Positions 1,302 through 3,802 of a stretch of DNA of 43,682 nt are shown piece after piece. Origin of the DNA: Staphylococcus phage SapYZUs7. Each line of letters starts with the position of its first letter. Within the stretch, counting starts at the first letter, position 1. The notes under the pieces are model-generated. The model was not told the DNA's origin. It worked only from the letters and a program-made list of their open reading frames with translations, and did not search any database. A program made the translations under genes and the position numbers. The DNA lies in the sequence record OQ828659.1, one strand, 5' to 3'.

Positions 1302-2006
1302 TTATGATAAAATGTTAGCTTTCATAAAATCTTCTATAATTTTTAAAGTTTCTTCATTGAAAGATATATGGCCAGTTGGATCGTAATCATTAAGTGTGCT
1401 TATTCTTTTTTTACTGATAGTGATAACTTGAGATGGAATTGCATAAGTTTGTTTGCCTACAAACCTTTCGTAACGCTCAATTATTTTTGCGAGTTGCATA
1501 TAATTATTTTCAATCTCATCAAGTTCTTTTTCGATTGCTGAATTTAAGTTTTTTACTTTTGTGGATCTTGCGTGCATTTCTTTTATTCTATCCAAATCGA
1601 ATCGTAAAGTTTTGTGGTCAGTTTTCATTTTTTCTAAAGCTTTTAGTATTAAATTCTCTTGTAATTTTAAAGAAAATTTGGTGTCTTTTGAAGTAAGTGG
1701 AACTATAGTAATTAGCTCATTGCGTTTGTTGTCATTTTTATTTAAAACGACGCAAAAATGATTCCCTGAGAATTCAGAACCAATGTTAACACCAAGTTTA
1801 GCGTATACAATAGTACCTCTTGGATACACTTTAAAGTTTTTTTGGTTAGTTAAGGTTGTTTCATTTTTAAAAATTATTGATTTTGTAAAAAGCCAGTCAT
1901 CCAAATATTTAAATTTGAATTTTCCGCTATTGCAAACCTCTTCAAAGTTATTTACAGCTTTTAATATTTTATCTTTGCTACTTTTTTTGGTGGAATTTCT
2001 TTCCAT
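1302..2006 (-). CDS. Atypical MazF/PemK-fold protein (234 aa) with a ~58-aa N-terminal extension and ~60-aa coiled-coil insertion
   Basis: Segment PRGTIVYAKLGVNIGSEFSGNHFCVVLNKND...LITIVPLTSK aligns to the MazF/Kid core (RGDVY..L.P..GSE..G.RPvVi...ivvPiTs). A later SQVITISKKRIS...FNEETLKIIEDF segment resembles the MazF C-terminus. Strong SD gaggagg. Confidence 0.6.
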   Translation of the reverse strand: MERNSTKKSSKDKILKAVNNFEEVCNSGKFKFKYLDDWLFTKSIIFKNETTLTNQKNFKVYPRGTIVYAKLGVNIGSEFSGNHFCVVLNKNDNKRNELITIVPLTSKDTKFSLKLQENLILKALEKMKTDHKTLRFDLDRIKEMHARSTKVKNLNSAIEKELDEIENNYMQLAKIIERYERFVGKQTYAIPSQVITISKKRISTLNDYDPTGHISFNEETLKIIEDFMKANILS

Positions 2007-2145
2007 CCCTCATCCTCCTCACGCCATATAGGCGTTTATTTCCTATATTCTTCTTCAACATACTTTTTTACTAAATATTCAAGAATAAGTTCGGTCATTA
2101 GATCGTTTTCTTCGTACTCTTTATGAAGTTACTTTATTCTTTGAA

Positions 2146-2313
2146 TTAATTTAACTTATCGCCATCTATTTTTTGTGAAATAAATTCCAAGTATTTACGC
2201 GCATTATGTGACGATAAATCTTTAGGTAACTCATAAGTGAATGGTTGATTACCACTAGTTAAAACTTCATATACTATAGTTTCTTTTTTTATTTTGCAAT
2301 TTTTTATTTTCAT
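2146..2313 (-). CDS. Hypothetical small protein (55 aa from internal ATG with SD aaaggaag; the ORF track's 70-aa version is the longer alternative)
   Basis: ORF on the lysogeny strand with a good SD and 6-nt spacing. Lies immediately upstream (on minus) of the MazF-fold gene, so it is a possible antitoxin-like partner. No recognisable motifs. Confidence 0.4.
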   Translation of the reverse strand: MKIKNCKIKKETIVYEVLTSGNQPFTYELPKDLSSHNARKYLEFISQKIDGDKLN

Positions 2314-2516
2314 TATAAACTTCCTTTCAAACACTGCTGAAATAGACGTCTTTTTCAAATAAGCATGATTAATACTTCAATTCTTTAATCCACATATATT
2401 TAAAAGTGAGGTAGTAGGTAATAAATATAAGACTTAAAGTTAAGATTGCTTTTTTCATGTTTCATAATTAAAACCTCTGTTAATTTAAGGTTAGTATTAT
2501 GAAATAATGGATTGGT

Positions 2517-2858
2517 TTATTCTTTAGTACTAACTTCGTAGTAAATTATATAGTTCGCTAAATTGTATTTATCTACTATATTTTTGGAATAAACAATTTC
2601 CTTTTCTTTCTTCAGTAAATTATAAAAATCTACATCATTTTCGTTAGCTGATTCTATTTTGGTGATATCAGATTGTCTAACGATTCTTTTAGATCTGTCA
2701 AGGTATATAAATTTCCCTGATTTAGAATTAGTCTTTTTATTCACACCGACGTAAATTGAAAGTAATATACTTTTTCCAAAAACAGCATCACTGTGATTAT
2801 GGTTTTCATCTTCTATAACTAAGAATACATGCTTTTTTGTAAAAATTTTTTTGATCAT
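2517..2858 (-). CDS. Hypothetical protein (113 aa), co-operonic partner of the exonuclease-BRCT gene
   Basis: Start lies 6 bp after the stop of the upstream (minus-strand) gene. No recognisable catalytic motifs. Confidence 0.5.
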   Translation of the reverse strand: MIKKIFTKKHVFLVIEDENHNHSDAVFGKSILLSIYVGVNKKTNSKSGKFIYLDRSKRIVRQSDITKIESANENDVDFYNLLKKEKEIVYSKNIVDKYNLANYIIYYEVSTKE

Positions 2859-2863
2859 CGTTA

Positions 2864-3802
2864 TTATTCCTTTATTAAATTTATTAAGTCTTCTTCATTT
2901 AAAAATTGAATTTTTGCACCATTTCCAACATATTCTCGAGCTTTTCGTTGTTTTGAAACTAGTCCGTTCACATCTTTATATTTATCATCTTGAACACCTT
3001 CGACTAAAATATCTGTTTTTGCAGTTACGTCACTTCTGATATAAGCTCCTTTCTTTCTAGTTAATATCATTAAATCTTGTTTTTCAGTGTCAAAATTACC
3101 TGTAAAAACAACATTTTTATCTTTTAAAATAGGGATTACACTTTCCACTTCTATTTTATTAATCTCAGATATTTTCATATGAATTTTTTGAAATCCTGAA
3201 TCGAAAAGTTTAGTTGGAGAGTTAGAATATTTGCTAAATCTAATGTATTGCTTAGGCATATAATGTATTAATTTTAATACACTATAATGCTGATTGTTTT
3301 TAGCGAGTGATATCAACATCTTCGATAAAGCTAGCACGTCAAATTTAGCAGAATGTAATTTTTCTTTATCGATATCATATAAGCTACACAAATTTTCTAA
3401 TTTAAAACTAGAGATTGCGTGGAAGCTTCTAAAGATATTTATACTATCGACATACATGAAGTTTGGAACAGGTAAGTCATAATAATTATTAGTATTTTTT
3501 AATACTGAAATATCAAAAAGTGCATTATGAGCAATAATTAAATGTGATTCTTTTAAAAGATAGAGAATTTCTTGGTAAATATCTGGATATTTAGGTGCTT
3601 TTAATATGACATCTTCAGGTATTTTATGTATTTTAGCGTTTTTCAAGTTATATCTATTATTAGGAGGATTAATATAAGATGAATAAACTTTTACTATTGA
3701 TAGATCCTTAATTAAAGATACAGCAACTTCGCAAGGGCTGTTCATATGTTCATTCATAGTTTCAAAGTCTAAGACTGCAATATCATATTTTTTCATTTGC
3801 AA
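2864..3802 (-). CDS. DnaQ-like DEDDh 3'-5' exonuclease fused to a C-terminal BRCT domain (312 aa)
   Basis: Exo I motif DFET (VLDFETMN), Exo II motif AHNALFD, Exo III motif HSAKFD with His. The C-terminus (VVFTGNFDTEKQDLMILTRKKGAYIRSDVTAKTDILVEG...) matches the BRCT pattern of NAD-ligase type. Confidence 0.7.
   Translation of the reverse strand: MQMKKYDIAVLDFETMNEHMNSPCEVAVSLIKDLSIVKVYSSYINPPNNRYNLKNAKIHKIPEDVILKAPKYPDIYQEILYLLKESHLIIAHNALFDISVLKNTNNYYDLPVPNFMYVDSINIFRSFHAISSFKLENLCSLYDIDKEKLHSAKFDVLALSKMLISLAKNNQHYSVLKLIHYMPKQYIRFSKYSNSPTKLFDSGFQKIHMKISEINKIEVESVIPILKDKNVVFTGNFDTEKQDLMILTRKKGAYIRSDVTAKTDILVEGVQDDKYKDVNGLVSKQRKAREYVGNGAKIQFLNEEDLINLIKE

Follow-up and report, generated by a model that had tools for sequence, protein, structure and literature searches.

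This study concerns the region between the integrase gene (int) and the repressor gene (cI) of Staphylococcus phage SapYZUs7, as presented in sequence record OQ828659.1, the whole 43,682-nucleotide (nt) stretch of which is hereafter termed the window. Comparison with other phages, prophages and satellites indicated that the int-cI region very probably carries independently exchangeable cassettes, and not one system: cassette A consists of the genes for an exonuclease-BRCT fusion and a 113-amino-acid (aa) partner protein, and cassette B of the gene for a 234-aa MazF-like protein followed by that for a predicted small RNA (sRNA). The explanation that these two units are separate items of lysogen-expressed cargo is assigned a probability of roughly 0.6. 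An earlier note on this DNA, prepared from the sequence alone, had described four minus-strand open reading frames (ORFs) between int (72-1109) and cI (3812-4525), and the ORF list (1302-2006, 2146-2358, 2517-2858 and 2864-3802) together with Pfam assignments confirmed that arrangement. The same note was correct in regarding these genes as accessory cargo of a lysogen-expressed region, distinct from the integration and immunity core, and the four did not prove to be syntenic core genes with a documented role. Its further proposal, that all four constitute a single system, was not sustained by the presence/absence polymorphism that it had itself put forward for comparison.

The window represents a phage of the Sa3int type, int with its flanks and segment 2151-4700 being ~99% identical to phiNM3 and phiN315. 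Segment 2151-4700, comprising the end of a 55-aa gene, the partner, the exonuclease, cI and cro, was found by blastn to be 99.5-99.8% identical in phiNM3, phiN315, phi12, 23MRA and StauST398-1/4, while in StauST398-2 and others the similarity ran from 2357 onward; exonuclease, partner and cI showed 99-100% identity in phiNM3, N315, phi12 and StauST398-1/2/4. Equivalent comparisons with phiNM3, N315 and phi12 delimited a variable slot at 1161-2150. In the phages for which the content of this int-adjacent slot was read, it held a lipoprotein gene (phiNM3, StauST398-4), tarP plus another ORF (N315), or a plus-strand 'Na/K ATPase' ORF (phi12). The int-side border of the slot consists of a 37-nt terminator/ribosome-binding-site (RBS) junction (1124-1160) that is 92-99% identical in phages with other integrases (phi12, phi2958PVL). 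It was also observed that this junction resembles a common cargo-exchange joint, int being preceded by a terminator in all phages with the junction.

Outside the window the genes of the gap part company. Exonuclease (at least 99% identity) and 113-aa protein were each detected by tblastn in 21 phage records, the two record sets being identical, and among these the MazF-like gene was present only in 23MRA (one phage, two records), in fragmented form. The 23MRA copy (L001:3044-3769) is annotated as three short ORFs and is probably a pseudogene. Conversely, the identical 234-aa protein was located in ten other prophage neighbourhoods within public assemblies, none of which contained the exonuclease; these contexts featured three kinds of recombinase (a serine recombinase and two tyrosine integrases, one of the Sa3 type and one adjacent to the suf genes) and two types of repressor, S24 and XRE plus ImmA. 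The 55-aa gene (phrog_1176) occurs with either neighbour or with neither: it is found without the MazF-like gene in phi12, phiNM3, N315 and phi2958PVL, and without the exonuclease in YMC/09/04/R1988, a distribution which marks it as an unrelated backbone gene in a segment common to many S. aureus phages. Of the 'two small partners' of the earlier note, the 113-aa protein does pair with the exonuclease, whereas the 55-aa protein is tied to nothing. The 20-codon ORF at 2036-2098 is what remains of the 3' part of a gene that an S. chromogenes prophage has in full (47 aa); it is probably a trace of recombination at the border of the variable slot.

That all four genes represent one undescribed system acting together is scarcely credible, because the presence/absence comparison separates the exonuclease pair, the 55-aa gene and the MazF-like gene. 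The genes are co-oriented, closely spaced and low in G+C, no minus-strand terminator was detected by scanning between cI and 1204, and the S. suis prophage Javan549 has the same order, cI-exonuclease-MazF-like-int. However, the Javan549 order also follows from the preferred site of each cassette, after the repressor and before int respectively, and exonuclease pair and MazF-like gene are apart far more often than together. In the phage collection no record covered more than 79% of positions 1-4700, and the exact gene combination of the window was absent.

The two genes of cassette A very likely form a pair. In other Staphylococcaceae an exonuclease of 48-60% identity is followed by a partner homolog of 116-146 aa, the start of which overlaps or abuts the exonuclease stop codon; in the one pair compared directly, the partner homologs were 44% identical. 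The partner family is a small one, with only 21 clusters recovered by HMMER among 1.84 billion representative proteins, and three of the four distant members with readable contigs adjoin an exonuclease-BRCT gene. One such locus is an XRE-ImmA-exonuclease-partner-serine recombinase array, and in two distant loci the order is reversed, the partner preceding the exonuclease with gaps of 1 and 13 nt. Overall, partner homologs (E down to 1e-4) adjoin exonuclease-BRCT genes, either before or after them, at distances of 1-17 nt, and the retention of linkage despite a change in gene order argues for a functional pair. One reversed pair, on a short metagenomic contig (L065:648-4472), stands beside the gene for a single 577-aa protein with GIY-YIG and Schlafen-like helicase parts, and may be part of a defence island. 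The AlphaFold model of the partner (pLDDT 82) predicts a small beta-barrel with two C-terminal helices, weakly Sm/Hfq/WYL-like, and a nucleic-acid-binding function for this modelled barrel can serve as a lead only.

The earlier reading of the first gene as a DEDDh exonuclease-BRCT fusion with intact catalytic residues was supported. The Pfam RNase_T domain (~3320-3775) was matched with E 4e-12 and 47.4 bits against a gathering cut-off of 24 bits, and the residues D10, E12, D95, H148 and D153 (310-aa numbering) were invariant in 15 homologs at 48-90% identity, placing the protein among the DnaQ/RNase T-like DEDDh 3'-5' exonucleases. The BRCT domain (~2897-3133) scored slightly under its Pfam cut-off (E 7.5e-4; 20.1 versus 21.3 bits); it exceeded that cut-off in homologs such as that of phi2958PVL (32.1 bits), most homologs inspected carry PF00533, and the C-terminal domain additionally matched PHROG and NCBIfam models of the LigA C-terminus. 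The closest solved or curated relatives were DNA polymerase (Pol) III epsilon and the PolC exonuclease. Two genome-collection scans for relatives of the exonuclease gave nothing in one case and one locus in the other. Domain-level PADLOC matches to PDC-S48 and to CRISPR-associated DEDDh exonucleases (E 2e-26 and 2e-21) were rejected as a defence assignment: only positions 1-175 of the 411-position PDC-S48 profile were matched, far from a match along an entire profile of 411 or 512 positions. Nine exonuclease homologs matched the same N-terminal positions, among them a 303-aa exonuclease-BRCT protein encoded 17 nt after the NAD-dependent ligase gene ligA at a Bacteroidetes chromosomal locus (L005:3425-6912). 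The PADLOC match is no evidence of defence, because this housekeeping-looking homolog matches equally well; it reflects a generic exonuclease domain only, and the opinion of the earlier note that the combination corresponds to no named system stands.

Public databases name the protein 'DNA polymerase exonuclease subunit' or 'Pol III-like' (it is phrog_192 in PHROG), and these names, the PRK06195 match and the epsilon-like fold would accord with a proofreading subunit for phage replication. Such a role is extremely improbable: the gene lies on the lysogeny strand behind cI while the early replication module is on the other strand, it also occurs in satellites, and the score against NCBIfam PRK06195 was 160.8 bits versus a cut-off of 373 bits, though the alignment spanned positions 3-307 of 309.

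In every temperate element examined, the exonuclease gene was located directly after the repressor module, whatever the type of repressor or integrase. It follows an S24 cI in the window, Staphylococcus sp. IVB6181, S. suis Javan549 and a viral contig at 26% identity; XRE plus ImmA in Staphylococcus sp. IVB6214, Mammaliicoccus, S. pneumoniae IPP43 and two further contigs; and a truncated HTH gene in a streptococcal satellite. The arrangement extends to viral contigs of 25-27% identity, and in 23 distant viral loci, with two upstream ORFs inspected at each, HTH_3 was found in 12 of the 46. A second exonuclease-BRCT type, 26.6% identical and with no 113-aa partner, lies behind another repressor in phi2958PVL (L063:3381-4301) and in phages 47 and LH1. 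Further operon cargo was noted in IPP43 of S. pneumoniae, where repressor and ImmA are separated by two 'plasmid stabilization' genes of the RelE/ParE type (L062:2667-3163).

The cI repressor gene is the first of the lysogenic transcription unit, and 1161-3811 would be the distal part of that cI-promoter unit, occupied by exchangeable cassettes. Inserted immediately behind the repressor gene, cassette A (2517-3796) would be made together with the repressor in lysogens; the BRCT domain would guide the exonuclease onto foreign DNA, incoming or replicating, at nicks or 3' ends, the small partner would regulate or target the enzyme, and superinfecting phages might thereby be excluded, by positional analogy with rexAB behind lambda cI. 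The main rival for the exonuclease, with or without partner, is that of a modulator of prophage maintenance or induction, or a repair enzyme, which by trimming 3' single-stranded or nicked DNA would adjust the RecA/SOS signal to which the neighbouring repressor, of S24 type or under ImmA control, is subject. This is judged unlikely, and draws on the invariable linkage to SOS-responsive repressor modules of two kinds, on the ligA-adjacent Bacteroidetes relatives, and on the kinship with Pol III epsilon and the PolC exonuclease plus a LigA-like BRCT. It has to be set against the fact that lysogen-expressed exclusion genes, too, are classically found behind the repressor, and that the exonuclease is dispensable, being missing from many phages with related lysogeny modules; moreover, the gene occurs in satellites and in the non-prophage-looking context beside the gene for the GIY-YIG and Schlafen-like helicase protein, and a partner that evolves fast and is confined to one lineage would be more usual in a conflict system.

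Turning to cassette B, Pfam, AlphaFold and Foldseek each upheld the earlier assignment of the 234-aa protein to an atypical MazF/PemK fold. PemK_toxin was matched with E 2e-9 and 37.9 bits (cut-off 23.1), and with the AlphaFold model (pLDDT 81.6) as query the top 35 matches in the PDB were all MazF, with TM values of ~0.65-0.74 on the target. The protein carries as extras two N-terminal helices (residues 5-49; 1860-1994) and, inserted in the barrel, a helical hairpin of ~60 residues (119-180; 1467-1652). An hhalign comparison with a hand-entered sequence of B. subtilis MazF placed H83 (1760-1758) at the catalytic R25 and T105 at T48, residues the roles of which are as reported in the published work on 4MDX. 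Among 14 homologs of 23-44% identity from Staphylococcus, Macrococcus and Streptococcus, the residues K31, E49, G64, G72, N74, E78, S80, H83, D92, P103, S106, A189, K199, I202 and I224 were invariant, while the inserted hairpin varied freely in both length and sequence. Of these residues, E78, S80, H83, S106 and K199 form a conserved pocket at the MazF active-site position. The canonical combination of catalytic Arg (R25) and Thr (T48) was not found, H83 being invariant across the 14 sequences and three genera, and the site is, on this alignment, conserved yet not that of canonical MazF. A profile search of the family against solved structures had yielded only coiled-coil noise, so that a fold search was needed.

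Homologs of this protein (phrog_1412) were present in 110 phage and satellite records, and in every temperate element examined the homolog was the last gene before the recombinase gene; one prophage remnant (L012) retains it with no integrase left. No conserved protein antitoxin was apparent among these contexts, because the upstream neighbours differ: ImmA, a bPH_3/SHOCT protein, an ORF of 55, 61 or 93 aa, or the repressor itself. The 20-codon ORF was rejected as an antitoxin, being the remnant of a longer gene found elsewhere, as was the 55-aa protein, which occurs without the MazF-like gene. In other S. aureus prophages, ImmA and the MazF-like gene are often separated by the gene for the bPH_3/SHOCT (PH-domain) protein, of 241 aa (L070:4244-4969, L080:2305-3030), a further item of operon cargo.

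A predicted sRNA gene overlooked by the earlier note was identified directly 3' of the MazF-like gene (1261-1176, minus strand), and the two very probably form a pair. In the flanks of identical MazF-like genes only ~35 nt travel along upstream, a short hairpin and RBS (160 nt upstream compared, seven contexts), whereas 3' of the gene a 190-nt non-coding stretch is identical before three unrelated recombinase genes. The upstream hairpin (2021-2035), situated at the RBS, is kept in all contexts with small variations of stem and loop, and may serve as a processing site, an attenuator or a joint for recombination. Within the sRNA, two 31-nt tandem repeats each contain a hairpin of the form CCGG-UAACCAAU-CCGG (1253-1238 and 1222-1207), followed by an intrinsic terminator (1204-1181) and a T-run. 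A TTTACT/TATAAT site at 1296-1268 is the presumed promoter. There are three repeats at locus L070 and one at L117 (94% identical), and the 91-nt sRNA stretch folds with z = -4.4. The Rfam model RF02394 (sau-63) aligned to 1261-1176 over its full length (1-98 of 98; E 9.3e-8) with 51.7 bits versus a gathering score of 100 bits, which makes the window RNA a relative of the family rather than a member. The founding member, sau-63, was detected by Northern blot as an sRNA of ~100 nt in S. aureus N315, encoded in the island SaPIn2/nuSa-alpha (PMC3053349), and is serum-induced in USA300 (PMC4752604). Its genomic setting is that of the window RNA: a MazF-like homolog precedes canonical sau-63 by ~50 nt at 14 of 24 metagenome loci, the others being short or chance matches.

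When IMG/VR was scanned for the hairpin motif, all 18 two-copy loci had a MazF-like gene ending 52 nt upstream, most of them being the same cassette and thus weak as independent evidence, while 60 of the 62 single-copy matches looked like chance. More informative were some 18 loci of divergent MazF-like homologs (25-64% identity), all of which have two or three small hairpins plus a terminator after the stop codon: S. pseudintermedius (64%), Macrococcus (36%), S. chromogenes (39%), SA13 (43%), SA345ru and StB27 (29%), one locus at 41%, and eleven streptococcal phages and satellites. A promoter-like site was read by eye at the same position in most of them. The hairpin loops are conserved within subtypes and duplicated within each locus, while the stems change in a compensatory manner, for instance CCGG/CCGG, GCGG/CCGC or ACGG/CCGU around UAACCAAU, and CCGC/GCGG versus UCGC/GCGA around UGAAAUAUUU. 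MAFFT and RNAalifold applied across the staphylococcal subtypes recovered the terminator only, the hairpins not being aligned, and hairpin covariation in the staphylococcal loci was read by eye. With six streptococcal sequences RNAalifold recovered both hairpins and the terminator, with double changes in 8 of 23 pairs, 96.7% of cells paired (as against 37-49% when partners were slid by 1-3 columns) and at most 1 in 500 shuffles reaching the observed values, figures which come from few independent lineages and a structure derived from the same sequences. The element was absent upstream of int in six loci without the MazF-like gene (phiNM3, N315, IPP43 and three others). In Javan433 and Javan569 (L083, L186) two different hairpin-sRNA elements were each seen in tandem between MazF-like gene and int.

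Two readings of this arrangement dispense with an RNA-controlled nuclease. In the first, hairpins and terminator are the plain 3' end of the lysogenic operon and the MazF-like gene is solitary, possibly an inactive toxin relic, as the commonness of small hairpins in AT-rich DNA, the sub-threshold Rfam score and the fragmented copy in 23MRA might imply. It is very improbable, given an intact identical protein in 5850 blocks of the assembly index, residues invariant across genera, a promoter-like site between stop codon and hairpins in most lineages read, duplicated loops with compensatory stems, and the discrete sau-63 band on Northern blots (PMC3053349). In the second reading, which is less improbable but still not favoured, the MazF-like protein would bind leader hairpins so as to govern termination or read-through into the downstream recombinase gene. 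The pair always lies immediately upstream of int in prophages and satellites, whichever the recombinase family, two terminators separate it from int, and some streptococcal 5' segments are, by eye, identical to the terminator 3' arm, suggesting alternative pairing. Against this, the cassette is optional, phiNM3, N315 and phi13 integrating without it; it precedes tyrosine and serine recombinases alike; and the conserved pocket occupies the MazF active-site position. In addition, on a 145-kb contig (L196) the sau-63/MazF-like pair lies in a chromosomal setting beside guaA/guaB, with an insertion sequence (IS) fragment upstream and no integrase downstream, and the persistence of the pair away from int weakens the idea of mere int regulation. 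The repeats were likewise rejected as integrase arm sites, being identical before tyrosine and serine recombinases.

For cassette B (~1174-2035) the preferred explanation would be that the sRNA, abundantly produced from its own promoter, binds and silences a nuclease-like MazF-fold protein that the lysogenic operon expresses weakly; an infection that shuts off or depletes the sRNA would free the protein, leading to abortive infection, and the variable helical hairpin may determine what triggers the protein or what it targets. Directly shown are which genes the region contains, the folds and the conserved residues, the independence of the modules, and the linkage of exonuclease with partner and of protein with sRNA. 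The biochemical activities and defence roles ascribed to both cassettes are inferred, and the likelihood that each acts in phage defence by the mechanism proposed falls somewhat short of an even chance. Still more ambitious, and doubtful on balance, is the wider proposal that phrog_1412 with its downstream hairpin sRNAs is an unrecognised protein-RNA class of toxin-antitoxin (TA) or abortive-infection (Abi) systems, and the exonuclease-BRCT protein with its barrel partner a new superinfection-exclusion system. Such a class would combine a PemK-family toxin, a His-based site and a variable helical-hairpin sensor with a separately promoted antitoxin RNA downstream, and would be widespread, both in the nuSa-alpha island and, among prophages and satellites of Firmicutes, at the end of the lysogeny operon next to the integrase.

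Several of the observations count against lysogen-expressed defence cargo of this kind. With regard to cassette A, a role in DNA repair or induction is equally compatible with a position behind SOS-sensitive repressors, and the Bacteroidetes ligA adjacency suggests an ancestral repair role for exonuclease-BRCT proteins, one such locus having been inspected. With regard to cassette B, the canonical catalytic Arg is absent, so that RNase activity is not assured, the RF02394 gathering score was not reached, the covariation has a narrow lineage base, and an RNA located downstream with its own promoter-like site is not type III architecture. Finally, the promoter-like sites of the region are consensus matches only, and internal promoters may exist between cI and 1204, although the terminator scan detected no terminator there (the only minus-strand sites within 1-5000 being 1204-1181 and 1160-1144).

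Comparison with established systems served to define these likenesses more closely. Cassette B resembles the type III TA systems (ToxIN, AbiQ, CptIN and TenpIN) in having a protein of Kid/MazF-related fold beside a short RNA gene with two or three repeats or hairpins (two tandem repeats of 31 nt in the window) and an intrinsic terminator, in the co-variation of protein and RNA variants between lineages, and in carriage on mobile elements. The ToxN and AbiQ toxins have a Kid/MazF-related fold according to their published structures. However, the cassette B protein belongs to the Pfam PemK family and not to ToxN/AbiQ, CptN or TenpN, no ToxN, CptN or TenpN match being obtained in Pfam, PADLOC or NCBIfam; it has the helical-hairpin insertion and N-terminal helices; and its RNA lies downstream behind its own promoter-like site, whereas type III RNAs lie upstream with a terminator between RNA and toxin. 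A relationship to TenpN was likewise rejected, tblastn against S. aureus plasmids with a reported tenpN having given no match. With type II MazEF/PemIK the protein shares the MazF fold (TM ~0.7 to S. aureus, B. subtilis and E. coli MazF) and the conserved framework G-x-E...P-x-T/S-S...S-K-x-R, but it is twice the size, has an invariant His for the catalytic Arg, and had no MazE/PemI gene beside it in any context examined. The window RNA agrees with sau-63 in aligning along the full model, in its first hairpin (identical) and its terminator, and in its position directly after a MazF-like gene, and differs in having a second copy of the first hairpin where sau-63 has its middle hairpin.

The likeness of the region to lambda rexAB, the lysogen-expressed exclusion genes behind the cI repressor, and to Tha/Ith of 80alpha, phi11 and phiNM2 lies in placement behind the repressor or in the int-cI region, and is positional only: no HEPN, RexA or RexB domain was found in the four window proteins by Pfam or PADLOC, and 1134-3811 contains no plus-strand gene for a divergent Ith inhibitor. 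A precedent exists in 80alpha, whose Tha defence system lies between int and cI and is expressed in lysogens under the cI promoter (PMC11087260). The exonuclease aligns with the DnaQ-type exonuclease-BRCT proteins PRK06195/PRK06063, over the full exonuclease plus BRCT length in the case of PRK06195, and has epsilon-like catalytic residues, differing in that its gene sits in a prophage lysogeny operon. The Pol III epsilon-theta pair, in which a small accessory protein likewise pairs with the exonuclease, offers a loose analogy, the partner being a predicted beta-barrel from a tiny family whereas theta is a helical bundle. P2 Old, an ATPase-TOPRIM protein, and the NrnC-like diDNases of genomic islands (PMC11706625) are precedents for prophage- or island-borne exonucleases connected with phage exclusion or with defence islands; these are other enzyme families, and neither has a BRCT domain or this partner.

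The features of the region are collected in Table 1. For the exonuclease, the most likely start is ATG 3796, 15 nt after the cI stop codon and with AAGGAG 9 nt upstream, giving the 310 aa also annotated in phiNM3, N315 and phi12; the alternative TTG 3802 (312 aa) is disfavoured because it is too close to the RBS. The 55-aa gene is read from ATG 2313 with its RBS, public records having 60 aa from a GTG. The G+C content is 0.24-0.29 over 1300-3800 versus 0.33-0.38 in cI, consistent with cargo.

Table 1. Features of the int-cI region of the window and its borders (window positions).
Feature	Position	Strand	Basis
Sa3-type tyrosine integrase, 345 aa from ATG 1109	72..1109	-	Pfam; region 99% identical to phiNM3 integrase region
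Int-proximal terminator-like hairpin, then int RBS	1144..1160	-	Terminator scan; junction common to other phages
sau-63-like small RNA, ~88 nt, cassette B RNA	1174..1261	-	Rfam RF02394, fold z-score, linkage
Promoter-like site TTTACT-17 nt-TATAAT	1268..1296	-	Promoter scan, 10/12
MazF/PemK-fold protein, 234 aa, phrog_1412, cassette B gene	1302..2006	-	Pfam, PHROG, fold
Short hairpin ACGCC-TATAT-GGCGT (2035-2021) abutting GAGGAGG RBS; cassette B 5' edge	2007..2035	-	Flank comparison, 7 contexts
20-codon ORF MTELILEYLVKKYVEEEYRK	2036..2098	-	19/20 residues match L017:3969-4112
55-aa protein, phrog_1176	2146..2313	-	PHROG match E 1e-37
113-aa partner, cassette A gene 2	2517..2858	-	Starts 5 nt after exonuclease stop
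Exonuclease-BRCT, cassette A gene 1, 310 aa	2864..3796	-	Domain and family matches, invariant DEDDh
Exonuclease catalytic codons	D10 3769-3767, E12 3763-3761, D95 3514-3512, H148 3355-3353, D153 3340-3338	-	
cI-type repressor, HTH_3 + Peptidase_S24	3812..4525	-	Pfam S24 E 3e-26, HTH_3 E 8.5e-11
Repressor promoter-like site, best match	4576-4548	-	Promoter scan

Two further observations fall outside these units. The 158-nt gap that follows the partner gene contains, on the minus strand at 2401-2466, a 21-codon ORF (MKHEKSNLNFKSYIYYLLPHF) that has a plausible RBS, and two minus-strand ORFs amid the plus-strand early genes, 5141-5470 (109 aa) and 6672-7313 (213 aa), may be further accessory genes.

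None of the pieces is listed as a system in PADLOC 2.0. Literature searches, whether on the exonuclease itself, on N315 locus tags, on PDC-S48 or on prophage defence by DEDDh/BRCT proteins, returned nothing specific on the exonuclease pair; papers that mention PemK in S. aureus prophages only listed it, and the literature searched gave neither a function for the MazF-like family nor a role for sau-63. The cassettes are two well-delimited, very common and uncharacterised units of known kinds, namely lysogeny-operon cargo and RNA-controlled toxins.

Nearly all human isolates of S. aureus carry prophages of this kind, and lysogen-expressed prophage genes shape susceptibility to phages, therapeutic ones included; two cassettes of the lysogeny operon are now delimited and clonable as units. 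The recurrence of the order repressor then exonuclease-BRCT across phyla raises the question of whether such enzymes act in exclusion or control the induction-triggering SOS signal. Were the pairing of MazF-like protein and sRNA to be functional, RNA-antitoxin control would extend to the PemK/MazF family proper, and, if true, this would provide the first function for sau-63, known since 2010 only as a Northern band and as serum-induced in USA300 (PMC4752604).

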